A stretch of 39,275 nt of DNA from positions 1 through 39,275 of the forward strand of contig CALZAJ010000002.1 in the NCBI GenBank assembly GCA_945613785.1, given 5' to 3'. A program made the position numbers and the translations under genes. How positions within the stretch are numbered: position 1 is the stretch's first letter; each line of letters begins with the position of its first letter. Below are positions 20,255 through 39,275 of this stretch, one piece after another. The notes under the pieces are model-generated. The model was not told the DNA's origin. It searched no databases and saw only the letters and a program-made list of their open reading frames with translations. The stretch is from an uncultured Verrucomicrobiota bacterium. GTDB taxonomy: Bacteria; Verrucomicrobiota; Kiritimatiellia; RFP12; UBA1067.

Positions 20255-20281
20255 GCCGGCTTGAGCTAAAACAGCCAACAG

Positions 20282-20562: not shown

Positions 20563-20630
20563 TTGCGCCAGAAAGGTCATAATGATGAGCCCGTTAATAT
20601 TCCGCCACCAAACTGGAAGGGAGGTGCGAA

Positions 20631-20924: not shown

Positions 20925-21049
20925 TAGCAGCGGGCAGCGGAGAGACAGCGGCTGGCCATGAGCCGACTTGGGGCTGCTCGTGAGGGCACGAGCAGTACGG
21001 TATCGCTTGAGGGCACCCCCGCGTGAGTCACGCCGGGTACTTTGCCCTC

Positions 21050-21205: not shown

Positions 21206-21242
21206 AAACAGTCAATTGGTTGTTTACTCCATTGCCCTATTG

Positions 21243-21251
21243 TGGTATAAT
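21243..21251 (+). promoter_or_regulatory. Extended -10 promoter element TGGTATAAT for the giant-gene operon
   Basis: Matches the TGnTATAAT consensus, 48 nt upstream of the ATG at 21299 and 108 nt upstream of the ATG at 21359. Confidence 0.45.
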
Positions 21252-21298
21252 TCTCAATGTCTTACTGTCGCCTGTTCTGATCAAACGGGCACAAGGCA

Positions 21299-24200
21299 AT
21301 GAGACAAACTATAGTTGAAACACTCATCGATGAACGTGCAATAAGGCATTGTGTACGTATGAAACTGCGACACGCCGTCAAGAGGGCATTGTCGACTGTC
21401 TGTTTTATGACAGCCGGCGCTACTCTTTTTTCTTTGCCCTTTTTCAGTGCGCGCGGAGAGGAGTACGTCGTCATTGATGCTGCCGAGGCCGCGAAGATTG
21501 GCGCAGCCGCCGGCGGCGATGAGATCCGTCAGATTGATAATGGGGACAGCACACTCGACATAGTCCATCTCTTTACCTCGACGGGAACGTCGATGTCCTT
21601 TACTGTTCCGGCGGAGAATATGATCAAGCCGGGTACGTTCCGTCTGTTGATCGTCGGCGGCGGCGGCAGTGGCGGTGGCGACTGTGGCGGCGGTGGCGGC
21701 GCTGGTGGTCTGATCTACCTGGATAACCTTTCGGCCGCTTCCGCTGTTGTTAATGTCGGTGCTGGTGGAGCTGCGACGACCAGTAAGGAAATGGGCAAGG
21801 ACGGCAGCCCCACGACCATTCAGTTTGGCGGTACGACCTATACGGCCCTTGGTGGCGGCGGTGGTGCCTGGTGGTCGGGCACAAATGGCCGCAGTGGTGG
21901 TTCCGGTGGCGGTGCCGTGCAGGGGAACGGAAATGGTTCCGTAGGCGCTGCCCAGCAGCCGACATCAACGTCGGGTGGCTATGGTAATGCTGGTGCGACG
22001 AGCGCGGTTAACAACGCGGGCGGCGGTGGCGGCGGCGCAGGCGGCGCGGGTAATACTGATGGCTCGGGCGGCCCTGGCATGGCTTACGACATTTCCGGTG
22101 AAACCACGTACTATGCTGCAGGTGGCGGCGGTGGTTGCGATGGCACGCGCAGCACGAGCGTGGGCGGCAGCGGCGTGGGCGGTAACGGCTCTCATAACGG
22201 AAGCAAAGGCGCGACGGACGGTGTGGCCGGTACGGGCTCTGGTGGCGGCGGTGATGGCGGTGGCAACCTGGGACAGGGTTCCTATACCTCACGTTCTGGC
22301 GCGGGTGGTAGCGGTGTTGTGATTCTTCGTTACACTGTTGAGACTTCGCCGATTCGCTCGACGGGTGCCATCCGTAAGCAGGTAGGCGATGACACGGTGC
22401 TGATCTTTACGAATGTCAATGAGGCGTGCTCATTTACACTCGGCGGCACGGCGCAGGCTCGGATTCTCGCCGTTGGCGGCGGCGGTGCCGGTGGTAGTGG
22501 AACCTACGCAACGACTAAAGGTGCTGGTGGTGGTGGCGGCGCTGGCGGTATGATAGATACGAATGGTGTCGTTCTTGCGGCAGGCGTTTATTCAGTAGTC
22601 ATTGGTAAGGGTGGTGCTGCAGCTGCAGATGTTGAGGATCTGTACGAAGGCGCAGACGGTGATCCGTCGTACATTTCAATAAATGGAAATGACGTAATAC
22701 GCGCATATGGCGGTGGCGGCGGTGGCGCTGTGGGGGCTGGCCGTGATGGTGGTTGTGGCGGCGGTGGTTCGAAGGTTTCAGGAACTAAGGCAGGTGTTGG
22801 CGGTTCGGCCCTGCAATCGTCGTCCACGTTTGGCGGTTATGGTTTTAATGGCGGCTCTAGCTCGACGAGTCGTGTCGGTGCCGGTGGTGGCGGTGCGGGG
22901 GCTGTGGGTTCGGCTTCGTCGACAACCGGCGCCCAGGGAGGCAATGGCCGTATCAGTGACATTACCGGTGAGCAAGTGTACTATGCTGGCGGCGGCGGCG
23001 GTGGCATGTTTACAACTACTGTTTATGAAAGCCTTGGCGGTCTTGGCGGCGGTGGCAATGGCGGTAATAATGATGCTGCGGCTACGGCTGGTGTGGATGG
23101 TCTTGGTGGCGGCGGTGGAGGCTGCAACGCAGATACTGTGGGTGGTGCTGGCGGCAGCGGTATTATTGTCGTTCGTATTTCTTCTGTGCTTGACGGTCCT
23201 ATTGCAAAGCCGGCCTCTGCGAGCTTCGTTTTTGATGGTGAAGATCACACCTTGATTCCGCAGATGGATTTCGCCTACACGATTACCGGCACGGCCAGCG
23301 CGACGAATGTTGGCGACTATCACTTCAAGGTTGAATTGAAGGACGGTTTTTGTTGGAATGGCGACCCTGCCGATACCGATCCGGTGGAAATCAGCTGGTC
23401 GATAACCAAGGCGCCCAACGCGATTACCGATCTTTATCAACCCAATTGGCTCACGGGCGAAACCCCCTCTACGCCTACTTGTCATGTCGATTTCGGCACG
23501 CCGGTTTACACATATTCGACCGAGGAGAATGGCGAATATGTCGCGCTCGACCTTGCCAGTCTCGGCCGCGGCGAATATTGGGTAAAGGCTACCATCAAGG
23601 AAACGGCCAACTATGATGGCGCCGAAGCCAAGGCGTCGTTCCGCGTTGTCGCCGGCCCTTCCGAATCGTTCGTATACCGCACGTCTTTCGCCGTCGCTGG
23701 CACGGACGGAACTTCGACGCTGACGAATTTTCCAGTGCTCCTTCGGCTCGATAAGAGCAATGTAGGCTTTGATTATGCCGAAATCAGGCAAGCGCGCGAT
23801 GCTGGCGAATTGAGTTTTGCTGATAATACCGGGGCGTATTTGCCGTATGAAATCGACACGTGGAATGAAAACGGCGAATCGCTCATTTGGGTAAGGCTGA
23901 ACGAGCTGTCGCCGTTGGGCGCGACTATTTCGATGTATTGGGGTCTGCGCGATGGCTATTCTGTCGAGCCGAATAATCCGCAGGCCGTCTGGACCGATTT
24001 TGCCGGCGTTTGGCACATGAACGAGGTGATACTCGCGGGCCGCGCCAGTTCGACCAAGTCGTCCGATTCCACCGCCGGCAAACACGATGCCACCCCGGTA
24101 AAAGGCACGAACGGTAATTTGACGCAAATGGTTTCTACGAATGCGGTGGTCGGTCTCGGGCGCGTCAACAGTTCTGTCAAGAGTTGCTTGAATGGCAACC

Positions 24201-27200
24201 GCCTCGCTACCGGCTCGCCTTTCAATCTGGGTTCCAAGTTCACTTTCTCGGGCTGGTATCGCTTTTCTGGAGTTGATAGCGGAACCCACCCGCGGCTGGT
24301 GGGCAATAAGAAAGGAAATAAAGCTCCTGGTTGGAGTATCGAGGCGGCAGCCGGCAACGCCGAACTCTTGTATGTTCGAGCCAATCTTAGCGATCCGACT
24401 TCATACATCAATAAAAACGACAACCTTTATAACGATTGGGTTTACCTTTCTTTCGTTTTCGACGGCGACAAGTCTACGCTCTATTCGAACGGACGCTACG
24501 TGAATACGGTAACTATCAATCCGGTCGCCGATGCGGAAGAGGGGATGAACCTTTGCTTCGGCGCCAATGCCGATGGTACGGAATATTCGCTTAACGGTAG
24601 TTACGACGAGTTGCGTATCACCCGTGACGCGCTTTCAGCGGATTGGATAAAAACCGACTACGAGCAAATGGGCGGCGGCCGCGCGCCCACACACGGGCCG
24701 ATCTATGACGGCAGGGTTGCGCGTAACGGTTGGAAGGTCCTGCCGTCTCTCTCCAAGGCGAACTGGGACGAAGGAGAAGAGGCCGCGACCTATGAAGTTG
24801 GTGAGCCGCTCCTGGGTACGCCTTCGGTCAGCTTCCGCATCATGCCGACGGGCGTCGAAACCAATGAGATGCCGACGGTTCGTGGCAACTATCAGATTGT
24901 TTTCACCGTTCCCGCGGCGGAGGACGGCAGCTACGATGGAATGGAATACGCCATTGATTTCGCGATTGTTGACCATAGCCCTTATACGTCCGTCGGCGGT
25001 CTTAACGGTGATTCCGGTCGCGTCTTGCTCATGAATCGTGATCGAAATAGCAAGTGCCCCGTTGATCGGCAGGGATATTCGGATACGTCTACGAAGCAGT
25101 CGACCTTCTGGGAATACCTCAATGAGACTCCTTACTCTGGGATTGGTGATAATAATCTTCAGGATGGTACGGAGTTTATCCTGTGGACAAAGGGCTACGG
25201 AAGCAAACTCTGGTACCTTGCGAATTGCCGCCACGGTAATACATTCCCGCAGGACGATGACGCTCCGCTACTTGGATATCAAAACTACCTGAGTTGGTCC
25301 GAGGACTCATACTCGTATTATCGTCGTACGCTTCTTGCTTCACGTGAAGGTGTCGGTCATTGTGTTATGCAGAACACAACGGATGCAGCGGTGTATTCGT
25401 CGTGTTATGCAGATGGCATTGGCACTATCTATTTCGATGCTGTTAATGGATGGACAAATAATGTCGGTGGAACCTATTGCCTGGTTGTTGAAGTCGCGAC
25501 AAATGTAATTGGATCTGCACTTGCACCTGCAGATGAGAACATTTGGGAAGAACATCTAATATATGACGAGGGCACCGTTGATCCTGAAAGTGGTGAAGTG
25601 ACCCCGAATGTGATTGGCGCTTATACGAACTGGTACGAGAAGGCGGATTGGAAGCCTGTTCGTATGTTCTCTTTAAAGATGGATGGTACGGCTGCCTTTG
25701 AAAAGCTTCCTGCTACTGAGGAGCTTGATCTTGACATTGTCAATGGCGGAACAATCAGTAATTTCTTCCGCGTGTACGTGCCGCTGAACTACAGAATGCC
25801 AGCTCGTTTCCGCATTCGTCGCACGAGTATTGACCCCGCGAAGGCGGCGGATGGAAACGCCCTCATCCTCATCGACAACATCATCGCCTCTTATCCGACG
25901 ATGCGTGCTGATCTGAGCTCGTATGGTATCTTCGACGAGTCCAAGGGCGGTAAGCAGATCCTCGGTCAGGAAGCGGCCTGGGTGACGCCGTTCCCGTCCA
26001 TTGGCGATGATTCCGTCCTGGCGCGTGCGAAGCCGGAGTACTACGTGAACGGTGCGGATACGAATGCCGACACGAGCGCGTTCGTGACGGCGGCGAAAAT
26101 ACATTACCGCTGGCGTTATCTCGATCAGAAGTTCGGCGCGTGGAAGATGTCCAGCCTCGATCCCAAGAACGACTTCAAGGCGGTCAAGCCGCTTGAACTC
26201 CCGTCCATTCCGGGCGATATCGAATACTGGTACGAGACGAACCTCCAGACGCCGTTCTATCAGTACGTCGACTATTCGGGTACCAACCTCGGCGTTCCCG
26301 GCTATACGGAAGAGATCCTGATCGTCACCAACCGTGCGTCCGGCGTCAAGTTCGATAGCCAGGGCACCGATTGGTTCGTCCGTCTCCGCGAGGGTAAGAG
26401 CGACTATGAGGCGCTGAACCTCATCGTCCGTCGTTTCAATCCCGAAGGCACCGAGGTCGGTGTGACGAACGTGGTCGAGATGGAGCTCATCGGCAACCAC
26501 GTCTGGCGCGGTTATCTCCAGACGCTTTCGAGCTCGGTCGGTTCTCTCCTCTTCAAGGTCGAGGCCAAGAACCTCCAGGAACCCGGTTCGAAGGAGTGGA
26601 AGGAGAACGTCGCTTACTGGCGCAATTCCGAAGAGATCACGACGCTCCCGGTGAGCGGCACGCTGGTGGCCAGCTCTGAAGAAGAATGGACGCCGATGCC
26701 GTGCGATGCGACCACGGGCTACCTCCTTTTCCAGATCGATGACTCGACTCACTCGCTGACGATCGTCCATGCGGACTACCAGAACTTCAACGCGTGGAAC
26801 GACGCGAATGAGAACGGACTCTTCGTCGGCAGCTCGACGGAAGACGAGGGCAAGGCGGGTGCCTCCCCGAAGGCGATCGAGTGTTCCGAGTCCTTCAACG
26901 AGTGGGTTGACATGCCGGCGACGAACGAGCACTGGCAGGAAACCTTCACGACGACGGTCGCTCAGGAATATCCCGATTATACGACCTTCCCGTCCACCAC
27001 CACCCCGAACGGATGGAACGCGGGCCAGGGTCAGCTCGTCTACGGTCTCTATAAGGACAAGGACAGCGGCCGTGCGCTTCAGATGGCGGGTCAGGGCTTC
27101 GGTTATCTACAGTTTGTTGACGCGGCGGAAGCTCCGCGTGGCCTCGAGTCGATCAGCTTCACGGCGCGTCTGGCTCAGTCCATCAACTTCAGCGACTTCG

Positions 27201-30200
27201 CCTATTACGACGCCGAGTCGAAACTGGGTTTGCACGACTATACGTTCAACGCGCGTACGGCGTTCGACCTGAACGGCTGCAATGACTTCACGGGTAATGC
27301 GTCTCTCTCGCTGATCGCCTATTATCGTCCGGGTAAGGGCTGCTACGAGTTCCGTTATGAACAGCAGTACGCAGCCAAGAGCACGGGCGAATCGCTGACG
27401 GGCAAGATCGGCGGACCGAAGAAGCAGGGTCAGGTTCTTTCGCTCTATCGTTGGTCGTACGACAAAGCCACGGGTCGTCTCAATACGACGCTTCTCGGGT
27501 CGTTGACGAACACGACGGGTACGGCGAATGCATTCGATCATCCTAGGTGCGAGGGCACGTCCTACAACTACCAGCCGATGTACATCTCCGTCTCCAATAG
27601 TGCGGATGGTGTGACTTGCATCATGGCGGGTGTCTGCCGCACGGGCATCAAGGCGACGGATACGCTCTCGACGATGGCGGCCAAGGAGTTCTATAACGTC
27701 TGCTACCGTGACAAGAGCGCGCAGCGTCTGACGAGCGGCACCTACGGCGTGTTGTCCGCGAACTGCAACGGCCAGTTCATCAAGCCGTACAAGTTCTCCA
27801 AGCCGATTGCGTTCCTCTCGAACTTCACGGACGACAACAAGCCGTTCAACTCTTACACGAAGAACACGATTCCGTTCTATACGACGGATAAGACGGACTG
27901 CACGGTCGAACTCAATAATGACCTGTGGGTCATCCCGCCGGGTCGCATGGAGTCGTTCAACGAGTCCGTCTCCCAGTGCGGTGTCCGTGCGCTCAAACCG
28001 ACCCAGGAGCTGAACATCTACACCGGTACGGCCGGCAAGACGGACTGGACGCTTCTGGCGAAGACCTCGTTCGACAGCTTCGGTACGTCCAAGCCCGTCA
28101 ACTTCAACCTGTACACGACGAAGGACTGCTCGGTCAAGATCGCCGCGGCCGGTTCGCTTGCCGATCTCCGTACGGACCTCATCATCGACGACGTCGTCCT
28201 GAAGCAGTGGCGTGGCGACGACTACAAGAACAAGGACAAGATGGTGAAGTACATCCCGCACTGGCAGGAGCCGTCGGACATCAAGGGGCACACCAACTTC
28301 ACGTTCACGTCGTGCTGGATCAAGAACGAGAGCATCCTCATGTCGGCCAAGCGCACGATTCCGGGTACGCCTTGCGCGATCCAGTCGCCGCTCTTCGACG
28401 GCAACTACAACCGCGGTCTCGGTCTCGGCATGTTCTCCTTCAACTACGAGAACGCGCAGGAGAACGTCAACCTGATCCTCCAGATTGCGACGAACGTGGC
28501 CTATGACGTTGTCAATAACATCGACAATCTCGACACCAACACCTGGGTGTACGTCACGAACTTCACCTTCACCGCGGCCGACAAGGCCAAGGGCGTCCGC
28601 AGCGCTTACGTCGGTCACCATGGCGTCAAGGGCGTGATGCGTCTTGTGATGGATCCGATTGTCGTCGACAACGTCAGGAACACGACGGACACCGCGAAGT
28701 TCGGTGAGATTTACATTACCGACGTCTTCTGCCGCGACGAACCCGTCCTCGACAGCGGCAGCTGGTGGGGCTGGAACCTTCGTACGCTCGGTGTCGACAA
28801 CAGCGGCAAGGACTCGGAGCATCGCATGTACCTGCCCGACTTGACGACGGTTGCGTCGAAGCTCGGCCTTTCGCTCGCGCTCAACAACTCCGTGAAGGAC
28901 GGCGTGGATGACCGTGACAACCAGACCTACCTCCAGCACGTCCCGTTCCTCCAGACCCCGACGTTCACGTCGAACATCGTGGGCGAGGTGACGTTCCGTG
29001 CGCGTAAGTACAATCCGTCCGACAAGCAGCCCGCGTATCTCGCGCTCTTCGGTTCGAAGACTGGTGACGAGAACGGCAAGTGGGACCGTCTCGAGATTCC
29101 GGACAATGACCTTGGCGTCTTCATCATCTCCAACGACACCTTCTCGACCTACTCCTACAAGACCGAGCCGGGTCAGGCCTACAACGCCTTCCGCCTCGCG
29201 GTCACGGGTGTGGAGGACGTGACGGATCCGCATATGTCGAACGCTCTCCCGAAGGGCTACGACCAGCCCTACCGCGTCCTCATCGACGAAGTCCTCGTCT
29301 CTGAGGCCGTCCGTGCGCGTGTCGCGTTCCGTCACGTCGGCGCGTTCCGCCACGATCTGATGGGCACTGGTTTCGTACCGGATGTCCCGAGCGAGAAGGA
29401 GCAGCCGATGTGCAACGAGAGCTGGGGCGTCGAGTGCGAAGTCTACGCCGCCCAGCTGCCGGACGAAATCGACTTCTCGCGCAATCCGCGCGTCCGCCTC
29501 TGGTGGTATGCGGGCGAGTATCCGTGGGGCTTCGAGAGCTGGAAGACGAACAAGCTCGCGAAGAGCGCGTGGCTTGCCCGTGCGACGGGCACGAACCTCG
29601 TCTACCGCTCGAGCTATCAGACGGCGCAGGACGCGGTCATTCCGATGTCCACCGCCCCAGGCACGGTCGTCCAGTACATGCTCGAGGTCGAGTACTATCA
29701 GGTCGGCGCGTCCACTCCGCTGACGAACTATCTCTCGTCGGCTGACTGGTCAACGCCGTCGTGGTACAAGCCGGTTGATCTCAACCGTGACCACGGCTAT
29801 TCCGACTTCTCCGCCTATAACATCCTTGATACGGTCGCCCCGCACTGGGCCTGGATCAACGAGGTGAACATCTTCGGCGACTACGACCGCAACTACGACA
29901 ACGTCGACAAGAACAAGCAGTTCGTGGAAATCGCGGTTCCGGCGGAAGCCGACATCACCGGTTGGAAGGTCACCTTGCTCGAGCCGCAGAAGGGAACCGA
30001 TTCGGTCATCACGAACGTCCTCGGCGTGTTCGGCGCGAAGGAACTCGAGCCGAAGAAGCCGGGTCTGCGCAACATGGCCTCCAACATGGTCTTCCGCGTT
30101 CTCGCGTGCGAAAGCGCGCGTTCGTCCAAGACGCTCAGCTACGATGACGGCACGCTGGACGGCGTCTGGTCCGCGGATTATCCGACGACGGTCTTCACGG

Positions 30201-31603
30201 CGGCTGGCGAGATCTCCGCGATCAATCCGATCGGCTTCCAGCTCATTCGTGCGAGCGGCATCCTGGAGCATGAGATCGTGACGATCGGTACGAACTGGTG
30301 GAACGACCTCGAGTACTATCGTGACCAGTATCATCCGTCGAACACGGTGAACTATCTCAACAAGCACATGGCCGGCTCTTCGTTCACCTATGTCGGTGAC
30401 GATGACGGCGGCCTTGCGAATTCGCTCGGCGTGATCAACGAGCGCGGCCGTACGACGAACGTCTGGACGCGTGCGATGCACCACACGCCAGGCAGCATCA
30501 ACGAGGGTCAGAATATCGATCCCGACCATCCGACGCCGAACGGCTCGAGCGTGCTCATCTACGCGAACCTCGACATGAACACCGGCCACATCTATCAGAC
30601 GGTCGGCGAGGGCGTGAACACCAATGGTTCTCTGATCATCGCCATCCCGAAGGGCTCCGAGCGCGGCACGAACATCACCTATCGCGTCGATCCGTGGTTT
30701 GTCATCGGCACGGTCACGACCAACGGCAAGGAGACGGTTTCCCGTGCGCTCGCCGAACCTCGTACCTATCAGGTGACGGTCGGCGTCGGCGCGTCCAATA
30801 ATGTCACGGTTGTCGCGAGCGCGAAGCTGAATGACAGGCTTGTTGACCTCGGCCTTGTGGACGACAACAAGTATAAGCCAGCGGTCGTCGACTGGCTTGT
30901 GAAGGGCGAGGACGCCTATGGCAATCCGTGGGCGAACTACGGCGATGACGAGGTGCGTCTGGCGGACATCCTCCGTCTCGATGACACGGTTGTCACCAAC
31001 ATGACGCTCACGCAGATGTATTGGCTCGATATGGATCCGACGGTCGGCAATCTCGCGCTCAAGGCGGGCTTCTCCAGTCCGGCGCTCCCGAAGATCCGTG
31101 AGAACTTCTCCGGCCACACGGTGACGAACATCCAGCTGGCGGTCAAGATGATGATCACCAACCGTACGGAAGACGTTTCTGACACCAACGGCTACGGCAA
31201 GGCCTGGACGCCTTACGTGCTGCGCGGTCTCGAGCCGGGTTCGCTGTCCTGGGACTACTCCGACACGGCGGAGTGGGGCTGGACGAGCGTCACGTTCAAG
31301 GTGACCGGCATCCTTTGGAACGGCCTAACGAGCGAGAGCAATCCCGAGCAGTGGATTCCGCTGCGCTGGTTCGTGTTCAAGCCCGATTCCTTCTATCAGC
31401 CCGGGGAGGAGAAGGCGTTCACCTCCGAGATCGAGCTCATCGATCCGTACGGCACGGAGACGCCGGGCTACGGTGCGGGCTGGTATGACTGGGTGCGCGA
31501 GCACGGTCCGACGCCGATCTACTATTCCTGGTCGCTCGATACGCGTCTGAAGCCCTTTGGCATTGAAGTATTGAAAAAGAACAATTACTATGACTTCGAA
31601 TAA
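21299..31603 (+). CDS. Giant secreted protein (3434 aa): 2 x glycine-rich domain, Ig/MBG-like repeats, DUF2341 + LamG, several beta-sandwich modules, lamin-tail-like domain
   Basis: Uninterrupted 10.3-kb ORF. The alternative start at 21359 gives a classical signal peptide MKLRHAVKRALSTVCFMTAGATLFSLPFFSA. The motifs are detailed in the findings. Confidence 0.9.
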   Translation: MRQTIVETLIDERAIRHCVRMKLRHAVKRALSTVCFMTAGATLFSLPFFSARGEEYVVIDAAEAAKIGAAAGGDEIRQIDNGDSTLDIVHLFTSTGTSMSFTVPAENMIKPGTFRLLIVGGGGSGGGDCGGGGGAGGLIYLDNLSAASAVVNVGAGGAATTSKEMGKDGSPTTIQFGGTTYTALGGGGGAWWSGTNGRSGGSGGGAVQGNGNGSVGAAQQPTSTSGGYGNAGATSAVNNAGGGGGGAGGAGNTDGSGGPGMAYDISGETTYYAAGGGGGCDGTRSTSVGGSGVGGNGSHNGSKGATDGVAGTGSGGGGDGGGNLGQGSYTSRSGAGGSGVVILRYTVETSPIRSTGAIRKQVGDDTVLIFTNVNEACSFTLGGTAQARILAVGGGGAGGSGTYATTKGAGGGGGAGGMIDTNGVVLAAGVYSVVIGKGGAAAADVEDLYEGADGDPSYISINGNDVIRAYGGGGGGAVGAGRDGGCGGGGSKVSGTKAGVGGSALQSSSTFGGYGFNGGSSSTSRVGAGGGGAGAVGSASSTTGAQGGNGRISDITGEQVYYAGGGGGGMFTTTVYESLGGLGGGGNGGNNDAAATAGVDGLGGGGGGCNADTVGGAGGSGIIVVRISSVLDGPIAKPASASFVFDGEDHTLIPQMDFAYTITGTASATNVGDYHFKVELKDGFCWNGDPADTDPVEISWSITKAPNAITDLYQPNWLTGETPSTPTCHVDFGTPVYTYSTEENGEYVALDLASLGRGEYWVKATIKETANYDGAEAKASFRVVAGPSESFVYRTSFAVAGTDGTSTLTNFPVLLRLDKSNVGFDYAEIRQARDAGELSFADNTGAYLPYEIDTWNENGESLIWVRLNELSPLGATISMYWGLRDGYSVEPNNPQAVWTDFAGVWHMNEVILAGRASSTKSSDSTAGKHDATPVKGTNGNLTQMVSTNAVVGLGRVNSSVKSCLNGNRLATGSPFNLGSKFTFSGWYRFSGVDSGTHPRLVGNKKGNKAPGWSIEAAAGNAELLYVRANLSDPTSYINKNDNLYNDWVYLSFVFDGDKSTLYSNGRYVNTVTINPVADAEEGMNLCFGANADGTEYSLNGSYDELRITRDALSADWIKTDYEQMGGGRAPTHGPIYDGRVARNGWKVLPSLSKANWDEGEEAATYEVGEPLLGTPSVSFRIMPTGVETNEMPTVRGNYQIVFTVPAAEDGSYDGMEYAIDFAIVDHSPYTSVGGLNGDSGRVLLMNRDRNSKCPVDRQGYSDTSTKQSTFWEYLNETPYSGIGDNNLQDGTEFILWTKGYGSKLWYLANCRHGNTFPQDDDAPLLGYQNYLSWSEDSYSYYRRTLLASREGVGHCVMQNTTDAAVYSSCYADGIGTIYFDAVNGWTNNVGGTYCLVVEVATNVIGSALAPADENIWEEHLIYDEGTVDPESGEVTPNVIGAYTNWYEKADWKPVRMFSLKMDGTAAFEKLPATEELDLDIVNGGTISNFFRVYVPLNYRMPARFRIRRTSIDPAKAADGNALILIDNIIASYPTMRADLSSYGIFDESKGGKQILGQEAAWVTPFPSIGDDSVLARAKPEYYVNGADTNADTSAFVTAAKIHYRWRYLDQKFGAWKMSSLDPKNDFKAVKPLELPSIPGDIEYWYETNLQTPFYQYVDYSGTNLGVPGYTEEILIVTNRASGVKFDSQGTDWFVRLREGKSDYEALNLIVRRFNPEGTEVGVTNVVEMELIGNHVWRGYLQTLSSSVGSLLFKVEAKNLQEPGSKEWKENVAYWRNSEEITTLPVSGTLVASSEEEWTPMPCDATTGYLLFQIDDSTHSLTIVHADYQNFNAWNDANENGLFVGSSTEDEGKAGASPKAIECSESFNEWVDMPATNEHWQETFTTTVAQEYPDYTTFPSTTTPNGWNAGQGQLVYGLYKDKDSGRALQMAGQGFGYLQFVDAAEAPRGLESISFTARLAQSINFSDFAYYDAESKLGLHDYTFNARTAFDLNGCNDFTGNASLSLIAYYRPGKGCYEFRYEQQYAAKSTGESLTGKIGGPKKQGQVLSLYRWSYDKATGRLNTTLLGSLTNTTGTANAFDHPRCEGTSYNYQPMYISVSNSADGVTCIMAGVCRTGIKATDTLSTMAAKEFYNVCYRDKSAQRLTSGTYGVLSANCNGQFIKPYKFSKPIAFLSNFTDDNKPFNSYTKNTIPFYTTDKTDCTVELNNDLWVIPPGRMESFNESVSQCGVRALKPTQELNIYTGTAGKTDWTLLAKTSFDSFGTSKPVNFNLYTTKDCSVKIAAAGSLADLRTDLIIDDVVLKQWRGDDYKNKDKMVKYIPHWQEPSDIKGHTNFTFTSCWIKNESILMSAKRTIPGTPCAIQSPLFDGNYNRGLGLGMFSFNYENAQENVNLILQIATNVAYDVVNNIDNLDTNTWVYVTNFTFTAADKAKGVRSAYVGHHGVKGVMRLVMDPIVVDNVRNTTDTAKFGEIYITDVFCRDEPVLDSGSWWGWNLRTLGVDNSGKDSEHRMYLPDLTTVASKLGLSLALNNSVKDGVDDRDNQTYLQHVPFLQTPTFTSNIVGEVTFRARKYNPSDKQPAYLALFGSKTGDENGKWDRLEIPDNDLGVFIISNDTFSTYSYKTEPGQAYNAFRLAVTGVEDVTDPHMSNALPKGYDQPYRVLIDEVLVSEAVRARVAFRHVGAFRHDLMGTGFVPDVPSEKEQPMCNESWGVECEVYAAQLPDEIDFSRNPRVRLWWYAGEYPWGFESWKTNKLAKSAWLARATGTNLVYRSSYQTAQDAVIPMSTAPGTVVQYMLEVEYYQVGASTPLTNYLSSADWSTPSWYKPVDLNRDHGYSDFSAYNILDTVAPHWAWINEVNIFGDYDRNYDNVDKNKQFVEIAVPAEADITGWKVTLLEPQKGTDSVITNVLGVFGAKELEPKKPGLRNMASNMVFRVLACESARSSKTLSYDDGTLDGVWSADYPTTVFTAAGEISAINPIGFQLIRASGILEHEIVTIGTNWWNDLEYYRDQYHPSNTVNYLNKHMAGSSFTYVGDDDGGLANSLGVINERGRTTNVWTRAMHHTPGSINEGQNIDPDHPTPNGSSVLIYANLDMNTGHIYQTVGEGVNTNGSLIIAIPKGSERGTNITYRVDPWFVIGTVTTNGKETVSRALAEPRTYQVTVGVGASNNVTVVASAKLNDRLVDLGLVDDNKYKPAVVDWLVKGEDAYGNPWANYGDDEVRLADILRLDDTVVTNMTLTQMYWLDMDPTVGNLALKAGFSSPALPKIRENFSGHTVTNIQLAVKMMITNRTEDVSDTNGYGKAWTPYVLRGLEPGSLSWDYSDTAEWGWTSVTFKVTGILWNGLTSESNPEQWIPLRWFVFKPDSFYQPGEEKAFTSEIELIDPYGTETPGYGAGWYDWVREHGPTPIYYSWSLDTRLKPFGIEVLKKNNYYDFE

Positions 31604-32042
31604 GAAGACAGTGATTCTGGTGCTGGTGGTCCTGGCCGTCTTGCTCGGCCTGGTCTGCCTGCTTTGCACCAAGGTGCTGCGCGGCGAGAAAGAGCCGACG
31701 CAGGTGAAGTACGATGATCCCGTGCAGGCTCGCATGCACGACGAGACGTACGTGGCGAAGCTGAACGAGCAGCTCGCGTCGCGCAAAGAGATCCTCAAGG
31801 GTCTTTCGGCGGCGAAGACGAAGCTGAACGCAGCGAAGGCGAAGCTCGAGGAGGCGAAGAACGCCAAGGCCTCGGACGAGGAGATCGCCAAGTTGAGCGC
31901 CGAAGTCGCTGCGTGCAACGAAGACGTCCAGGCTTGGGCCAAGAATTTCGAAAACAATCAGCGCCTTTCCGAGAAGATCGTTCGCGATCAGATGTGGAAG
32001 TCGGGTGCGGATCAGCAGCAGCTTCAGCAGAAGGGGAACTAA
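31590..32042 (+). CDS. Small membrane-anchored coiled-coil protein (150 aa)
   Basis: N-terminal anchor KKTVILVLVVLAVLLGLVCLLC, followed by a Lys/Ala/Glu-rich heptad-like segment (LSAAKTKLNAAKAKLEEAKNAKASDEEIAKL). It overlaps the giant gene by 14 nt and ends 1 nt before the next ATG. Confidence 0.75.
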   Translation: MTSNKKTVILVLVVLAVLLGLVCLLCTKVLRGEKEPTQVKYDDPVQARMHDETYVAKLNEQLASRKEILKGLSAAKTKLNAAKAKLEEAKNAKASDEEIAKLSAEVAACNEDVQAWAKNFENNQRLSEKIVRDQMWKSGADQQQLQQKGN

Positions 32043-32043
32043 G

Positions 32044-35000
32044 ATGACCATCAAGAACAAACTCCTGAAACTATTCACCCTCGCCGCGGGAATCACCGCA
32101 GGCAGCGCGGCGTGTGCCGCCGGAGGTGACATATTCGAGATTCGGCCCTGTACCCAGGAAGGTCTGGCCAGAGCTGCGTATGCGACCATCGACTCCCCGC
32201 TGACTTCAGGCGAATCGGTCTACTTCAAGATCCGCCTCATCCAGCGCACGATCGGCGCCGCGAATTCCGTGTGGAAAATCGAGCATATCGGTGCCAGTTC
32301 CCAGGTGGTCGATGACGCGCTTTATCCGTTGCAGGTCGGCATCTACGTGTCAGGCCAGCTCCGTTACGCCTCGTTGATCGATGCGACGTCCGATGCCACG
32401 ACGGGCTTTACGGATCTCGTCTTCGAGTACAAGACGCGTGCGGGCGACTTCGCGCTCCCGATCGTTCTCGCGACGACTGACGGTCCCGCTTCGGATTCGG
32501 ATACCTCGCTCGAGTATCTGCTCAACCCGGCGCGTACCGACAAATGGAGGATCGCGAACGACGCCGGCAACACCTGCAAGTTCTATTACTGGACGCCTGA
32601 CCGCCCGGCCTCTTCCCCTGATGGCACGCGCATGACGGACTACTCGCTTGCGGACTGCGGCTTCTATGTGCAGACCATCGGCTTCGACAAGGAGTGGGAG
32701 TCCGAGGACTTCTGGCGCACAGTTCACCAGAACTCGTCCATCACAGTCGGCGGTACCCCGTCCCTTGAGGCTGCCGCGGCCCCTGAAGACGCGGTCACGC
32801 TCTATGTCTGGTCGATGGATGACAACGTGGTCAAGGTCCGTGGCGGCACGGTCCAGAACATGATCACCGGTTACGATGAGAGCAACAATCCCATCCGCAC
32901 GTCCACGCAGGTCGGTACGGTCACCCTCGCGGGTGGCCAGCTGAAGGCCGACTTCGCAATTGAGGGCGTGACGGAAGGCGACAGCACGAAGCTCGTCCTC
33001 AGCCCGTGGGATCACTACACCTTCAAGACGGCGACGGGTGCCCGTATCGTCGACTACATCACCGTTCCCGTCAAGTGTATCGAGCCGATGCCCCCGACGG
33101 CCATTGTCGAGGCCGACCGCCTCGTTGCCTATGCTGACGGCAACTACATGACCTATGGTGCGCTCCTTTCTGTCTATCTCTCCCAGGCCTATCAAGATGG
33201 CCCCGTCGATGTCAAGATCAAGCCCTCCTTCGCGGATGGTGCGGCGGCTGACTGGGGTGATTACATCCGCTTCTCCACGACGCAGGACGAGGTGACGGCG
33301 CTGCCGCCCGGCGGTCCCGGCAACGAGATCACGGTCCGTATCCCGGCCGGCTCCACGGCCAAGCAGCAGATCTACGTCTTCTGTCTCCGCGGCGATTCGC
33401 ACACCACGGGTACGTCCCGCATGGTGTTCACGCCTGAGGTCCTTGACGCAACGGCGGCGGCGGTCATCCACGAGGTGACGGCGGCCGGTATGGAAATCCG
33501 TGCGGCGGCTCCGGTCATCACGACGCCGGCCGAGGGCGCGAAGATCTCCGGCATCTGCGGTGACGAGATGCCCTTCATCGTCGCGGTGAGCGACACGTTC
33601 GCCGATTCCTCCTTCCAGGACACGACGGGCGCTTCCGGTTATAAGATCTACATCAAGTACCGCGGTTCCGACGCCTACACGCTGCTCGACGGCTTCTATT
33701 ACGTCGGCGAGGGCAATGCGCTTTACCGCATGAAGGATGACGGCACGCAGACGGGCACGTACTTCGCCTCCACCGATCTTCCGATCATCAAGTACCCGGG
33801 TTCCGGCGAAGGTCTCGCCAGCGAGGTCTACGTCGTTTCCCCGCTGAGCGGCAAGAAGAGCGAGGTCGTCCACTTCGTCGCTGACATCAAGGAGGCCCGC
33901 ACCTCCAACGTCGTCACGACCGACGACAAGAACGACATCTACTACGAAGGCGAGAAGGCGACCTTCCAGATCTCCATCTCCGAGAAGAACGACACGGGCA
34001 GCACGATCTACGCGTTCTTGCTCGCCAGCGACAACGCCGAGGCGGCCATGTTCAGCGCCACGCCGAACTTCGTGGTCTGCAACGACACCGATCTGACGAA
34101 GACGTCCGGTCTCGCGATCAACAACTACCAGGACAAGACGTCCGCCAGCAAGATCATGTTCCTCGACGGACTCAGCGAGGACGCGGGCGGTCTCAGCCTC
34201 ACCTTCCAGGTCGTGCTCTGCAGCACCAAGAACTACGATCCGGCCAAGCGTCTCGCGGGCTATGATTCGAACTACCTGAACATTACGGTCTACAACCTCG
34301 AGCCGCAGATCACGCGTATTGAGATGAACGGCTTCGAGTCCGAGAGCGATGGCGCTGTGTTCCCGAACAAGGTCCCGAAGGGCATGACCCAGGAGTTCAA
34401 GGCAATCGTTTCCGATAAGGGCAAGTACGACCTGACCAACACTGCCGAACCGTTCCAGTGCAAGTGGACGGCGACGCTCGCGGGTGTCGGCGCGATCAAA
34501 AACGACGTGATCGCCGGCGATCCTTCCAAGAATCCGTTCTCCTATGACTTCCCGCGTGCGGGTGACTGGACGATCAAGCTCCAGGTCAAGGATAAGGACA
34601 TGGAGGACTGGTCCGACGTCACCTACTCGGTCGGCGTCACCGTGCTCGATAACCCGCAGGTCGAAGTGATCGCTCCTGAGGCGCTCGTCGAGAACGACCA
34701 CTCGGGCAAGATCCAGGTCCAGCTCAGCTACTGGGATCCGCTCTTCACGGGCAAGCTCAAGGTCCGTGTCACGGTCGAGGAGTACAGCCCGGGCCGTGCG
34801 AACCCTGGTGAACTCAAGCTGGACAGCAACTACTCGACCGGCGTCAACACGTATGAGGTCGAGATCGGCGATGCGCTTCCTGTCGATCTCATGATCGAGG
34901 CGATGGATGGTACGGAAGTCTCCTCGCTCTACGGCTTCGTCATCAAGACCGAGGTCATCTCGACCGACGTCCTGCCGACGTCCCACACGCCGGCGAACGA

Positions 35001-38000
35001 GTACTATGTTGAAGATTCTGCGCGTGTCCTCATCAACAACGTCGAGCCCGTCTGCATGGTCAGCCCGGCGGAGAACACGAACCGCTATGAAGTCGCGGGC
35101 GGCGTGGCGAAGAACCACGGCATCCGTTGGCAGGTCAAGAGCGACGTCGACGCCGATTTCGCGGGCATTCCGACGTTCAAGGGCATCAAGGTCAGCTTCT
35201 CGGGCTGCGCGAACGCGACCGAGTTCTTCGTGAACGAGTCCACGAGCGACACGTTCTATCCTGACTTCGGCTCCTCGCAGGGTGACCAGGACGTCGTCCT
35301 CACGATCGAGGATAAGGATGGCGGCTACCTGACCTGGACCTGGCAGTTCACGGTCACGCCTTCGAAGTTCCTCACGACGGTCTCCACCGGTCCGTCCGGC
35401 GGCACGACGACTTCCGCGCTCTCCCAGAAGTACACGCTCTGCGATGGTATCGGCATGGGCCACACCTATGTCGCCGACGCGATCTTCTCCTCCGCGCAGA
35501 ACTTCCGCCTGAAGTGGAACTGCTCGAAGAACATCTACATGGACATCTACGGCTTCGGCTACAAGGTGGCCAGTCCGAACGACGACGGCACCCTCGATGG
35601 CATGGACATCGCCCTCGACCAGTACGGTTCGGCTTCTGCCGGCAGCACGGTCACGGATCCGTTCCACTACCCGATGGCCGACTTCAACCCGGACGACAAG
35701 GAAGAGGCCAAGAAGATCAAGGACTCTTACTTCTACTGCTGGATTCTCCACAGCGTCGGCGAGAGCGGCAATGGTGTCACGAGCTCGATTCTCGGCAACT
35801 CGATCGCCCCGGAACGTCCGGGCGTGGTCGGCACCGGTTCGGTGATGCTCCCGACGGAGAAGACCGAGGACGGCAGCTATCTCGACACGGTCGTCGAGGC
35901 CATCTTCGCGCAGGAATGGCTCCCCGCCGATAACCTCGGCGATATCAACCAGGACGGCGTCCCCGACGTCTTTGTCGTCAAGGATTGGAAGGGCGGCAAA
36001 CTCATCAACCTCGTCTACGGCACGGAAGACACCGAGTCCGACCTCAAGGCTTTGAATGCCAGCAACCCCGACGACGACTACTTGCCGGGCGTCTTTGAGC
36101 AGGATGATATGGTCGCGCTCGTCGAGAATAGCAAGAACAGCTACGCGCCCGTAGGCGTGCCGTTCAATACGCGCCTCGAGCTGCGCGGTCTCGACGACGG
36201 CCTGAACGCGACCGATCTTACCGCATCCGACGTCAGCTTCAGCGAGGATGAGCAGAAGGCCTGGGAGGCCTTCGCGAATGCGAACGGCCTCGATGCCGAT
36301 ACGCCGGATCTCGCGATCTGGAGCCCGGAACCGCGCAGCGCGCGCTACTCGCGCATGGACCCGACCCTCGACGATACCGACGGCGACCGCTTCCCCGACG
36401 GCTGGGAATACTACTTCTGGTATCAGGCGCATGTTTGGGCGCCCGCCGGCAAGAGCAAGCCGCGCCAAGGCCAGCAGTTCGCCTTCGAGCGTTTCCGTGT
36501 GTTCAATATTCTCGTGGGCGAGGAAATTCCGGCCGCGGAAGTTGAAAAGCGCTTCAACCCCTGCGATCCGCTGCCAGCTAAGGATTATGCCGACCATCCC
36601 GATTTCGACAACGACGGCCTTTCCGATCTTGAAGAATTGGTGCTTGGCACGAACCCCTGCCATTGGGATACCGACGGCGATCATATGTGCGACGGCTGGG
36701 AGGTCATGTACGCGCTCGACCCGCTCAACGGCAGCAAGAACGGCAACCCCGACGGCGATTTCATGGCCTTCTTCAATACCCTCGGCGTGCCTTGCTATGT
36801 CGACCCGAACGCGCCGATTCAGGATTCCGAAACGCCTGGCTTCGAGTTCCTCATCTGCAACCGCTTGCGTCCGATCATCGACTACGATCAGCTGTCCGGG
36901 ACGATTGTTCGCGATTTGACGACGATTGCGGTGCACTGCAAAGCGAAGGCCGATCCCGAAGACCCCGGAAAGGTTCTGCGCTACGGCCTGGGGCCGGATG
37001 TGGACGGTCCGCCCGCCAATGCCGAGCCCGAGGTGCTCAAGGATTGGGTGTGGAGCAATTTCATGGTCGAGGATATCTACAGGGTGGAGATCAAGCTTGT
37101 CGCGGGCGACAGGGTGAATATGTTCTTGCCCTACACCCTCATCCACGATCAGGTCCACACTGCTTTTGGCTACGATCCGCGCACCGCATGGTACAAGAAC
37201 GGCGAAGGCTATGTGGCCAGCCGCTGGGATCCGATGATAAATAAAGAGCTCATGCCCTTCGATACTACGGGTGTGGCGATCAATACTCGTCCCTACGAGA
37301 CGTACGACGAATACCTCGTCATGAAGTACCGCAGCGATTACAATATCATCTATTACCTCAAGGAACCCGGCTTCGACAACGGCAAACCTTGGGGCACGCT
37401 GCTGGCGAAAACGACGAACCCGAACGTAGTCTTCCCGACGGTTGAGGTAGAGGTGACCGAAACAACCGAGGAAGTCAGCGCCGACGGAACAACCACTAAT
37501 ACCATCGAGAACACGACCGTGCAGACCGTCGTCCAAACGAACGAGACGACGATTATCGCCCAGCGGCTCGCCGAGGCGCTTGCCGCTTCCGGCAGCTCCA
37601 GCACCGTTCAGACTGGACACGGCGCGGATACCGACGGCGACGGCGTGCCCGACGGCTGGGAACTCTACACCTACCGTTGCCCGAACGCTGCGCCGACCGT
37701 CGACGACGAAAAGCACCCGAAGAAGGAGATCGACTTTGACTACGACGCCGACAAGCTCAACTACGCCGACGAATTCGCCGGCACCGATTCCTGCAACGCC
37801 TACCGCAATTGCGCAACCATCTACGCCAACCACCCCGGCAATCTCAAAGGATGGTTCAACAAGTTCTTCCCCACCAACCCCGGTACATGGCTCGGATCGG
37901 CAATTGGCAACGACGACGGCAAAGATACCGACGGTGACGGTTTGACCGACTACGATGAGGGTCAGGCCTGGTGCGCCAATTTCTTCTATGAAGGGAAGAT

Positions 38001-39275
38001 GGTACTCGAAGCGCAAAGCAGCATCTTCTCGGCCGGCGCGAAAGCAATGGGCTTTATCTACGGCGAACCGCAGGATTCGATCACCTGCTGCGTGCGCGGC
38101 GGCGGCCTCAACCCGTGCACGGTCGATACCGACCAGGACTGGCTGCCAGACGCCTGGGAAGCGGCCCACGCCGGTTTGCCGGTGGATTTGGCGACGCGCC
38201 AAACCGTGGCGCCCGTTAACGGCGACAAGCTCGCCGACTTCGAGTTTGGCGACTCGACCTGGATTGCCGATGGTATCTATGGCGTTGAGGGTCTCACGGG
38301 CGTCTATATCGCCGGCGGCATGGACGGTACTTGGTCCGGCGATTACTGCACCGGCGATAGTATTTCGGTCGATGAATTGCTCGGGAAGGTCACGCGCGAT
38401 GTCGACTTTGACCACGACGGGCTTCAAAACTACCAGGAATACTTCGTGCAAGGCATGCGCCACTTCCGCTGGGACGAGATTTCCACCCCGCTTATGGGTC
38501 GCATCCTCGAAGAGGGCGATCGCGTGATGGGCAACCTCGTAACGGTGCATGAACAGCAGTTTGCCAACTTCACCCAGCACGATTTTTCCGACCCCGGTCA
38601 GCTGGCGGTCAACAGCGCGCTTGCGTGGGGCTCGAAGGAACTCGTGAAAACCATCACGGTCACGAACGGAACTTCCGTCACCTACGATTATATCGATCCG
38701 CTCAATCCCGCCGCGGGTCTGGTGACGAACATAACCTATTACACCGAGCGCAAGCGCATCTACGTGGGCGGCAATCAGCTGATCGACGATCGCATCGCCG
38801 GCAAGATCGCCAAAGCCTATTCGGCGCCGTGGTCGGACGCAGGCTTCCGCGCGCTCGGTTACATGTCCGCGCCCGCGCATGAATGGGATCGCTCCTTTAC
38901 GGCGTTACTTCTCAGCAATCCCACCTACCTCTTCCCGATTACCGGATCGCTGCTTGTCGACAAGGCGATGATAGGCTATGTTTCCACCGATCCGCGCATG
39001 CCCGATACCGATATGGACGGCATGGACGATTATTACGAGCTCTTCCACGGCCTCAACCCGTTGCTCGGCCAGACGACACCCGGCTACTGCGATTTGCTTT
39101 ACGATAAATACGGCGACATCATCGCGGGTACCTACTATGCCATAGGCTTCCCGCTGGTCGATTCGCGTCCGGTGTTTAACGCCTTCTTCAATGAATGGAC
39201 GCATCCGAACTTCGATCGCCGCTTGCCGTTGGGGTCTGGCGCGATCGGAACCATCGGTGCTCTCGCGCACGACTG
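32044..39275 (+). CDS. Second giant secreted protein (more than 2410 aa, 3' end outside the window): Ig/PKD-like modules plus thrombospondin-type-3-like Ca-binding repeats. Not present in the supplied ORF track.
   Basis: Hand translation of the frame (positions equal to 1 mod 3) from the ATG at 32044 met no stop in any stretch checked, including 38881-39275. Signal peptide MTIKNKLLKLFTLAAGITAGSAACAAG. PKD-like modules end in WTIKLQVKDKD and VVLTIEDKDGG. Seven or more D-x-D-x-DG..D(G)WE motifs are present, with a strong G/C bias at third codon positions. Confidence 0.88.
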   Translation, partial: MTIKNKLLKLFTLAAGITAGSAACAAGGDIFEIRPCTQEGLARAAYATIDSPLTSGESVYFKIRLIQRTIGAANSVWKIEHIGASSQVVDDALYPLQVGIYVSGQLRYASLIDATSDATTGFTDLVFEYKTRAGDFALPIVLATTDGPASDSDTSLEYLLNPARTDKWRIANDAGNTCKFYYWTPDRPASSPDGTRMTDYSLADCGFYVQTIGFDKEWESEDFWRTVHQNSSITVGGTPSLEAAAAPEDAVTLYVWSMDDNVVKVRGGTVQNMITGYDESNNPIRTSTQVGTVTLAGGQLKADFAIEGVTEGDSTKLVLSPWDHYTFKTATGARIVDYITVPVKCIEPMPPTAIVEADRLVAYADGNYMTYGALLSVYLSQAYQDGPVDVKIKPSFADGAAADWGDYIRFSTTQDEVTALPPGGPGNEITVRIPAGSTAKQQIYVFCLRGDSHTTGTSRMVFTPEVLDATAAAVIHEVTAAGMEIRAAAPVITTPAEGAKISGICGDEMPFIVAVSDTFADSSFQDTTGASGYKIYIKYRGSDAYTLLDGFYYVGEGNALYRMKDDGTQTGTYFASTDLPIIKYPGSGEGLASEVYVVSPLSGKKSEVVHFVADIKEARTSNVVTTDDKNDIYYEGEKATFQISISEKNDTGSTIYAFLLASDNAEAAMFSATPNFVVCNDTDLTKTSGLAINNYQDKTSASKIMFLDGLSEDAGGLSLTFQVVLCSTKNYDPAKRLAGYDSNYLNITVYNLEPQITRIEMNGFESESDGAVFPNKVPKGMTQEFKAIVSDKGKYDLTNTAEPFQCKWTATLAGVGAIKNDVIAGDPSKNPFSYDFPRAGDWTIKLQVKDKDMEDWSDVTYSVGVTVLDNPQVEVIAPEALVENDHSGKIQVQLSYWDPLFTGKLKVRVTVEEYSPGRANPGELKLDSNYSTGVNTYEVEIGDALPVDLMIEAMDGTEVSSLYGFVIKTEVISTDVLPTSHTPANEYYVEDSARVLINNVEPVCMVSPAENTNRYEVAGGVAKNHGIRWQVKSDVDADFAGIPTFKGIKVSFSGCANATEFFVNESTSDTFYPDFGSSQGDQDVVLTIEDKDGGYLTWTWQFTVTPSKFLTTVSTGPSGGTTTSALSQKYTLCDGIGMGHTYVADAIFSSAQNFRLKWNCSKNIYMDIYGFGYKVASPNDDGTLDGMDIALDQYGSASAGSTVTDPFHYPMADFNPDDKEEAKKIKDSYFYCWILHSVGESGNGVTSSILGNSIAPERPGVVGTGSVMLPTEKTEDGSYLDTVVEAIFAQEWLPADNLGDINQDGVPDVFVVKDWKGGKLINLVYGTEDTESDLKALNASNPDDDYLPGVFEQDDMVALVENSKNSYAPVGVPFNTRLELRGLDDGLNATDLTASDVSFSEDEQKAWEAFANANGLDADTPDLAIWSPEPRSARYSRMDPTLDDTDGDRFPDGWEYYFWYQAHVWAPAGKSKPRQGQQFAFERFRVFNILVGEEIPAAEVEKRFNPCDPLPAKDYADHPDFDNDGLSDLEELVLGTNPCHWDTDGDHMCDGWEVMYALDPLNGSKNGNPDGDFMAFFNTLGVPCYVDPNAPIQDSETPGFEFLICNRLRPIIDYDQLSGTIVRDLTTIAVHCKAKADPEDPGKVLRYGLGPDVDGPPANAEPEVLKDWVWSNFMVEDIYRVEIKLVAGDRVNMFLPYTLIHDQVHTAFGYDPRTAWYKNGEGYVASRWDPMINKELMPFDTTGVAINTRPYETYDEYLVMKYRSDYNIIYYLKEPGFDNGKPWGTLLAKTTNPNVVFPTVEVEVTETTEEVSADGTTTNTIENTTVQTVVQTNETTIIAQRLAEALAASGSSSTVQTGHGADTDGDGVPDGWELYTYRCPNAAPTVDDEKHPKKEIDFDYDADKLNYADEFAGTDSCNAYRNCATIYANHPGNLKGWFNKFFPTNPGTWLGSAIGNDDGKDTDGDGLTDYDEGQAWCANFFYEGKMVLEAQSSIFSAGAKAMGFIYGEPQDSITCCVRGGGLNPCTVDTDQDWLPDAWEAAHAGLPVDLATRQTVAPVNGDKLADFEFGDSTWIADGIYGVEGLTGVYIAGGMDGTWSGDYCTGDSISVDELLGKVTRDVDFDHDGLQNYQEYFVQGMRHFRWDEISTPLMGRILEEGDRVMGNLVTVHEQQFANFTQHDFSDPGQLAVNSALAWGSKELVKTITVTNGTSVTYDYIDPLNPAAGLVTNITYYTERKRIYVGGNQLIDDRIAGKIAKAYSAPWSDAGFRALGYMSAPAHEWDRSFTALLLSNPTYLFPITGSLLVDKAMIGYVSTDPRMPDTDMDGMDDYYELFHGLNPLLGQTTPGYCDLLYDKYGDIIAGTYYAIGFPLVDSRPVFNAFFNEWTHPNFDRRLPLGSGAIGTIGALAHD

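Follow-up and report, generated by a model that had tools for sequence, protein, structure and literature searches.

Giant extracellular proteins with calcium-binding repeats of the thrombospondin type 3 (TSP3) are a recognised feature of bacteria of the Planctomycetes-Verrucomicrobia-Chlamydiae (PVC) group (bioRxiv 10.1101/2023.11.21.568195; PMC12057145). Here, a gene for a protein of this kind, designated giant2, was found on the plus strand at the end of a 39,275-bp stretch of DNA (hereafter the window), which is one entire contig from an uncultured Verrucomicrobiota bacterium of the Kiritimatiellia. A reading of this DNA from its letters (the original prediction) had proposed that a real plus-strand gene starting at position 32044 was hidden from the list of open reading frames (ORFs), and that the 2,176-codon minus-strand ORF listed in its place (32350-38880) was an antisense shadow. 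We conclude with high confidence that positions 32044-39275 (+) hold the opening 2,410 codons of a genuine gene truncated by the contig end, and that 32350-38880 (-) is not a gene.

The giant2 product has much in common with the PVC giants described by West-Roberts et al. (10.1101/2023.11.21.568195) and with the protein of about 6,000 amino acids (aa) from Ca. Menyafoubacter (PMC12057145), namely the PVC lineage, a length of several thousand residues, a Sec signal, TSP3-type motifs, carbohydrate-binding-type domains, and an inferred surface role. Like the Ca. Menyafoubacter protein, it has no transmembrane helix, whereas the dockerin-type giants of Omnitrophota were described as membrane-anchored. 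In contrast to the PVC giants, giant2 gave no matches to dockerin, CASH, RHS, or lyase domains, and its calcium-binding-type loops are not arranged in tandem repeats but are single and widely spaced in a folded core, BLAST revealing no internal repeats. The closest relatives belong to a giant LamG family of Kiritimatiellia (P0004 of GCA_024694365.1, P0019) whose members are collinear with the window protein over all 2,410 residues, with 45-61% identity for the best of them. Both have a signal peptide followed by a GDIxEIRPC motif, invariant loops, and a small coiled-coil gene upstream; they differ in size, with 6,144 aa for the protein of the window species and about 4,100 aa for members of this family.

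Complete translation of the plus frame from the ATG at 32044 revealed no stop codon across 2,410 codons (32044-39275), including the stretches left out of the hand translation on which the original prediction was built. Over the same span, 47 and 59 stops occur in the other two plus frames, and 109 and 122 in two of the three minus frames. The G+C content at codon positions 1, 2, and 3 (GC1 to GC3) is 0.568, 0.431, and 0.807, respectively, a profile that resembles that of the neighbouring genes and agrees with the G/C-rich third positions noticed earlier, and a Shine-Dalgarno-like GGGGA (32033-32037, +) is found 6 nt before the ATG. Because the window is an entire 39,275-bp contig, the gene is cut by the contig end, and about 39% of it, the 5' part, is present. 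The frame was missing from the ORF list because the program drops ORFs that run off the source end, exactly the situation suspected from the omission; the 'hidden' status of the gene is an artefact of this behaviour. As for the expected product of more than 2,410 aa, the frame is indeed still open at the end of the window, but this figure falls far short of the full protein, which reaches 6,144 aa in a sister strain.

This sister strain is represented by Logan contig SRR32214410_3490 (26,664 bp, locus L056), the DNA of which is 98.96% identical to window positions 25872-39268 and which encodes an identical copy of the 150-aa protein found upstream of giant2. In this contig, the giant2 orthologue (6173 onward) was called on the plus strand with a complete product of 6,144 aa containing a Laminin_G_3 domain (Pfam). 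This product is 98% identical to the window protein, and its frame is open through all 3,333 codons read. Over the 7.2 kb that they share, 84 sites distinguish the two strains, with 28, 17, and 39 at the first, second, and third positions of plus-strand codons, respectively. When counted by the Nei-Gojobori method, differences in the plus frame were 39 synonymous and 45 non-synonymous (dS 0.024, dN 0.0081, dN/dS 0.34), and arithmetic on these counts places the synonymous excess about 5 standard deviations above the neutral expectation. Purifying selection was not found in the antisense frame by the same comparison, with 10.5 synonymous and 52.5 non-synonymous differences and a dN/dS of 1.84 against 0.34 for the sense frame. 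With more distant relatives, the most variable plus codon position was the third, and amino acid identity was always higher in the sense frame than in the codon-aligned antisense frame (0.63 vs 0.48 for L001, 0.36 vs 0.21 for L020). The ORF of giant2 is conserved as a gene and evolves under purifying selection.

Database searches identified 44 homologues of the plus-strand product, mostly 3,950-4,200 aa long and aligned from residue 1, with E-values from 0 to 1e-129, a query coverage of 98-100% for most of them, and a best identity of 60-61%. Two of these, from metagenome-assembled genomes (MAGs) of Kiritimatiellae, were named 'LamG domain-containing protein'. An exhaustive search with aa 1230-2410 returned 7,594 representatives of up to 7,774 aa at E<=1e-3, of which 365 also reached E<=1e-30. 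A scan of species-representative genomes revealed 51 loci, nearly all of them in Kiritimatiellia of the gut or rumen or in MAGs that bear the labels 'Verrucomicrobia UBA' or Lentisphaeraceae. Several locus-bearing contigs carry Azospirillum, Anaerovoracaceae, Barnesiella, Faecalibacterium, or Limosilactobacillus labels (L010, L029, L034, L039, L051); these are probably mis-binned or mislabelled MAG contigs. The window protein is collinear with 22 full-length homologues, and the family alignment shows invariant motifs along its whole length. Across related loci, giant2 products share 25-60% identity and their lengths range from 4,000 to 7,800 aa. With 6,144 aa, the orthologue of the window species exceeds most relatives by about 2,000 aa, the extra part lying after residue 3,333. 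Other long members of 5,300-7,800 aa occur (also L016, L018, L029), and the family therefore grows by large insertions. Thus, the family of giant2 is a large and fast-evolving one found in Kiritimatiellia of the gut and rumen, populous and uncharacterised, and its members are already present and correctly called in public data. Literature searches on giant, LamG, or TSP3 proteins of Kiritimatiellae and on PF21722 returned nothing on the giant2 family.

The overall architecture of the protein agrees with much of what had been read from its letters. The residue pattern and its conservation point to a Sec-type signal peptide (aa 1 to about 26; 32044-32121, +), in which a basic n-region is followed by a stretch of moderate hydrophobicity (Kyte-Doolittle means of up to 1.9 over 11 residues) and by a c-region of small residues, with a predicted cleavage site around aa 26. 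This signal peptide is kept in all 22 aligned homologues, and the GDI(F/Y)EIRPC motif that follows is found in most of them, being degenerate in the most distant. The cysteine of the signal region is not conserved and is therefore not part of a lipobox. No other hydrophobic segment was detected in the window protein. The signal peptide is followed by an array of beta-sandwich modules resembling immunoglobulin (Ig), fibronectin type III (FN3), or macroglobulin (MG) domains (aa 26-1219; 32119-35700, +). Its AlphaFold2 (AF2) model is all-beta, with a mean predicted local distance difference test (pLDDT) of 84.7 and a predicted template modelling score (pTM) of 0.40, as expected for beads on a string. 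Foldseek searches of the PDB with this model gave 206 matches at E<=1e-3 with low TM-scores; among the 50 matches listed, most were tandem Ig, FN3, or macroglobulin-type arrays (mastigoneme, alpha-2-macroglobulin, CD109, contactin, S-layer proteins), and these generic tandem beta-sandwich arrays did not single out any specific relative. The PKD-like modules of the original prediction are thus only partly supported, by a tandem beta-sandwich fold but not as PKD domains, since Pfam PKD gave no match at E<=0.01 in the window protein and PKD_4 reached only E=0.14 in P0004.

The remainder of the window protein is a mixed alpha/beta core (aa 1300-2410; 35941-39275, +) with nine D-x-D-x-D-G-type loops, all of them invariant in 23 sequences of 34-64% identity. 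Eight are canonical D-x-D-x-D-G-x-x-D-x-x-E loops (aa 1444, 1520, 1542, 1862, 1961, 2028, 2121, and 2321), many of which are followed by PDGWE, and the ninth is a DINQDG at aa 1300. Profile scans were run on the translations of both strands: the minus-strand product has no Pfam match, and the plus-strand product matches TSP3_bac (PF18884) at aa 1520-1538 (36601-36657, +) with an E-value of 1.6e-11 and 44.2 bits for a cut-off of 25. Only far-sub-threshold TSP3 matches to MtsD and CglD were obtained with NCBIfam. The calcium-binding motifs of the original prediction are thereby substantiated as motifs; the loops may bind calcium, judging from their residues. The core was modelled by AF2 with a pLDDT of 69 and a pTM of 0.73, and a PDB sequence search with the full-length homologue P0003 returned 0 matches. 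Beyond the window, Pfam detects Laminin_G_3 at about aa 2,500-2,700 in the sister-strain product, P0003, and P0004, and the family displays more calcium-binding-type loops together with a sub-threshold Ig_Rha78A_N-like module. All full-length relatives end with a C-terminal domain that finishes in GF[FY][KR][VA]x[VIL]xx and matches no Pfam or NCBIfam model.

The signature domain of eukaryotic thrombospondins, in which calcium-binding type 3 repeats are followed by a lectin-like beta-sandwich, offers a lead rather than a test. The succession in giant2 of D-x-D-x-D-G loops and a concanavalin-like (LamG) domain recalls this arrangement, but no homology is detectable past the short loop motif, the giant2 loops sit among helices and strands, and Foldseek retrieved no thrombospondin structures. 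Adhesins of the RTX type that are exported by type I secretion systems (LapA and SiiE type) are built on GGxGxD nonapeptide repeats, have no N-terminal signal peptide, and are encoded next to type I secretion genes, whereas giant2 has a Sec-type signal and no GGxGxD motif in 3,333 residues. No ABC transporter, membrane fusion protein (MFP), or TolC genes of a type I secretion system were found in the window, L001, or L004.

The ORF displayed opposite giant2 (32350-38880, -) is codon-aligned with it, as had been recognised, and its G+C content by codon position (0.816, 0.429, and 0.570) is the mirror of the plus frame. The composition of its product (V 13.7%, R 13.6%, A 11.1%, G 10.6%, L 10.2%, D 8.4%, H 3.8%) mirrors the GC3-rich sense codons, and this exact protein is not among the called genes of a collection of 15 billion proteins. 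Long antisense ORFs in frame -1 are a documented effect of codon usage (PMC3454372, citing Merino 1994 and Silke 1997), and the present one shares with them a codon-aligned position, rare TTA, CTA, and TCA codons, and a scaling with GC3. The minus frame is open because giant2 almost avoids A-ending codons, so that TTA, CTA, and TCA, the reverse complements of stop codons, are rare (4 of 2,410, at plus codons 10, 55, 103, and 2288). Since every four-codon box is poor in A-ending codons (Ser 2%, Leu 0.7%, Val 2.9%, Pro 1.6%, Thr 3.0%, Ala 4.9%, Gly 5.2%, Arg 0%), this depletion is not specific to anti-stop codons. The rate of antisense stops varies smoothly with GC3, dropping steeply as GC3 rises, in two families that are not related to each other, with a Spearman coefficient of -0.75 for 48 giant2 homologues and of -0.80 for 23 homologues of giant1, the large gene upstream. 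Antisense openness is not kept regardless of composition: relatives with a GC3 of 0.44-0.58 have 32-67 antisense stops that close the frame, the longest gaps being 165-627 codons, and the giant2 gene of L038 (GC3 0.96) has zero in 4,304 codons. Furthermore, the anti-stop at plus codon 2288, which bounds the minus ORF, is missing in the sister strain, where the next one is at codon 2674, so the two strains do not even share the 5' limit of the antisense ORF. The exceptional length of this shadow (6.5 kb) follows from the giant size of the sense gene. More extreme shadows were observed in relatives, namely that of the L038 giant2 gene and a 1,180-aa antisense ORF opposite the Peptidase_C10 gene of L022 (5816-9358, -), and giant1 has antisense shadow ORFs of 419-748 aa (e.g. 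27107-29353 and 22778-24289).

A genuine long antisense gene overlapping giant2, with both strands coding, would have some precedent in Pseudomonas aeruginosa, in which translated antisense ORFs of 957 and 1,536 nt were reported (PMC8850804). These share with the minus ORF a location inside an annotated gene and a GC-rich genome, but they show purifying selection along with translation, whereas the giant2 antisense frame has the dN/dS above 1 given earlier and is not conserved. Two observations nonetheless weigh against the shadow interpretation. The 2,184-codon antisense gap is longer than expected from synonymous nulls, with P = 0.0009 when the Leu and Ser codons of giant2 itself are shuffled and P <= 0.0016 when codons are resampled from neighbouring genes. 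In addition, an AAGGAG (38892-38897, -) lies 11 nt upstream of the antisense ATG at 38880, where the original prediction had seen no ribosome-binding site; it erred on this point and was right about the lack of a recognisable motif in the product, as judged by Pfam. GC3 along giant2 peaks mid-gene (0.85-0.96, compared with 0.70-0.76 at the ends), which accounts in part for the long gap and for the clustering of antisense stops at the gene ends. The hexamer corresponds on the sense strand to CGC-TCC-TTT (Arg-Ser-Phe), residues at which the family alignment has no consensus; a Shine-Dalgarno-like hexamer precedes 4 of the 331 minus-strand start codons in the region, and this one is read as a coincidence of sense codons. 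Both observations are mild and post hoc, and are outweighed by the tests of selection and conservation. An overlapping gene is thus very improbable, and the minus ORF is a textbook non-coding shadow, a by-product of G/C-rich codon usage, as first proposed. The possibility that giant2 itself is a decaying pseudogene or an assembly chimera might be raised by the fact that the gene is incomplete in the window and that giant genes are prone to assembly breaks. We regard it as highly unlikely, considering the 2,410 stop-free codons, the sense dN/dS of 0.34, the collinearity with 22 full-length homologues, and the independent assembly of a 99%-identical strain, in which the frame is open over at least 3,333 codons and a complete product was called.

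The biological role of giant2 can be approached through its architecture. The protein would be exported by the Sec pathway via its conserved signal peptide and might form an extended fibre, envelope-associated or extracellular, with a beta-sandwich stalk, a core stiffened by calcium loops of the EF-hand or TSP3 type, and a downstream LamG (concanavalin-like) lectin domain that would bind glycans. The small coiled-coil membrane protein or lipoprotein encoded immediately before giant2 may tether this fibre to the envelope. A glycan-binding surface fibre fits the fast evolution of the family and a dN/dS that, at 0.34, is fairly high. To such a calcium-stiffened, tethered, glycan-binding fibre, a surface adhesin or glycan binder as deduced from architecture, we give about an even chance; against it counts that the core model has no structural relative in the PDB (Foldseek, best E 2.1). 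A confident fold for the core with no PDB match would also suit an enzyme, or a scaffold of the cellulosome type that serves to degrade polysaccharides, in which aa 1340-2130 or so would be an unrecognised catalytic domain. Invariant polar residues (H1701, D1711, R1713, W1716), an NKFFPTNP motif, the sub-threshold match of homologues to Ig_Rha78A_N (a rhamnosidase-associated Ig domain), the Peptidase_C10 protein that is the upstream partner in a distant clade, and the interpretation of giant PVC proteins as degradative (PMC12057145) all point in this direction. However, no glycoside hydrolase, lyase, or peptidase family was found in giant2 or its full-length homologues with Pfam and NCBIfam, and most invariant residues are the Asp, Gly, and Glu of calcium-binding-type loops, making a mainly enzymatic or scaffolding role unlikely.

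The genes downstream, which lie outside the window, suggest yet another role, that of a substrate or component of a type IV pilus-like or secretin system. In 23-35 loci, giant2 is followed by ack, pta, a KpsF-like gene, Amuc_1102, and PilM, and in every related locus that is long enough this series continues with Amuc_1100 and a secretin. The distance from giant2 to the first possible ack start ranges from -173 to 215 nt, being mostly below 100 nt (32 loci), and the counterpart cluster of Akkermansia (Amuc_1098-1102) encodes outer-membrane pilus-like proteins (PMC10688800). Conserved synteny was nevertheless downgraded as functional evidence. The ack and pta products are 78-87% identical (median) among related loci in which giant2 is only 25-60% identical; the lineages are therefore close and giant2 fast-evolving, so that a common gene order says little about a functional link. 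Giant2 is also separated from the cluster by three housekeeping genes unrelated to it, and its signal peptide is of the Sec type rather than a prepilin leader. A part in the secretin system is accordingly judged improbable. In L001 and L004, the Amuc_1102, PilM, Amuc_1100, and secretin cluster spans 25503-32162 and 25800-32540, respectively. Returning to the fibre, a bolder version, in which the small coiled-coil lipoprotein and giant2 form an uncharacterised surface fibre system with a new fold in the core (about 1,100 aa) and a new sorting signal in the GFFKV tag, is doubtful; translation of the 6.5-kb antisense ORF is scarcely credible and far less likely than such a system.

Two other genes are closely associated with giant2. 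The small gene immediately upstream (31590-32042, +) encodes the 150-aa protein, which has a hydrophobic anchor at its N-terminus and a coiled-coil-like region rich in Lys, Ala, and Glu. The gene shares its first 14 nt with the end of giant1, a single nucleotide lies between its TAA and the giant2 ATG, and it is translationally coupled to giant2. In 19 related loci, a counterpart small gene, mostly with an L-x-G-C lipobox, precedes giant2 at a distance of -4 to 40 nt; these include loci of a distant clade that has a 1,175-aa Peptidase_C10 protein in place of giant1. In the window, giant1 (21299-31603, +) encodes a 3,434-aa protein with Gly_rich_2, Laminin_G_3, and DUF2341 domains (Pfam), and it lies upstream of giant2 in 26 of 55 loci. 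The giant1 protein is itself uncharacterised, its exact sequence is absent from the collection of 15 billion proteins, and BLAST detected no internal repeats in it. The idea that giant1 and giant2 are paralogues was discarded, no similarity being detected by BLAST. Of the promoter-like sites in the region, the best is TTTACT-17-TATAAT (21223-21251, +; 10 of 12 positions, by consensus match only), which has an extended -10 TG and is located 48 nt before giant1. From this site, giant1, the small gene, and giant2 would be transcribed together, and they probably form one operon of which giant1 is the first gene.

The window is otherwise ordinary chromosome, with rpe, a flavoprotein, a GT2 glycosyltransferase, gmk, tig-clpP-clpX, two CNNM/CorC transporters, and a histidine kinase, and it has no Rfam matches. 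A 1-kb gap (20255-21298) separates the ORF at 17693-20254 from giant1. In this gap, a strong terminator-like hairpin at about 20283-20315 (AACCCGCGG...CCGCGGGTT) precedes a T-run; the gap also contains GCTCAGATGC in three copies and a 97-aa ORF (20631-20924) for which Pfam gave no match. The 237-aa ORF at 2741-3454 (+), likewise unmatched in Pfam, may have been acquired recently: its GC3 of 0.52 is unusually low compared with 0.7-0.9 in its neighbours, and it has nine TTA, CTA, or TCA codons. An F[FY][KR][VA]x[VIL]xx motif at the extreme C-terminus is common to unrelated large secreted proteins: every giant2 homologue ends in ...SGFFKVVVTE or similar, the Peptidase_C10 protein of L017 (5807-9334) in ...RFYKVTVEGDKP, and the products of the window ORFs 17693-20254 (+) and 9403-13650 (+) in ...HKFFKAFLEVE and ...SLFVKVVVSS..., respectively. 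This shared motif may be an undescribed sorting tag or a terminal strand.

The main value of these observations is methodological. By dropping edge-truncated ORFs, an ORF track can hide a real gene and display only its antisense shadow, which in GC3-rich genomes can extend over thousands of codons and even stand behind a Shine-Dalgarno-like hexamer. The biology does not go beyond existing expectations for the giant surface proteins of PVC bacteria, and giant2-type surface proteins are candidates for the attachment of Kiritimatiellia to host or dietary glycans.

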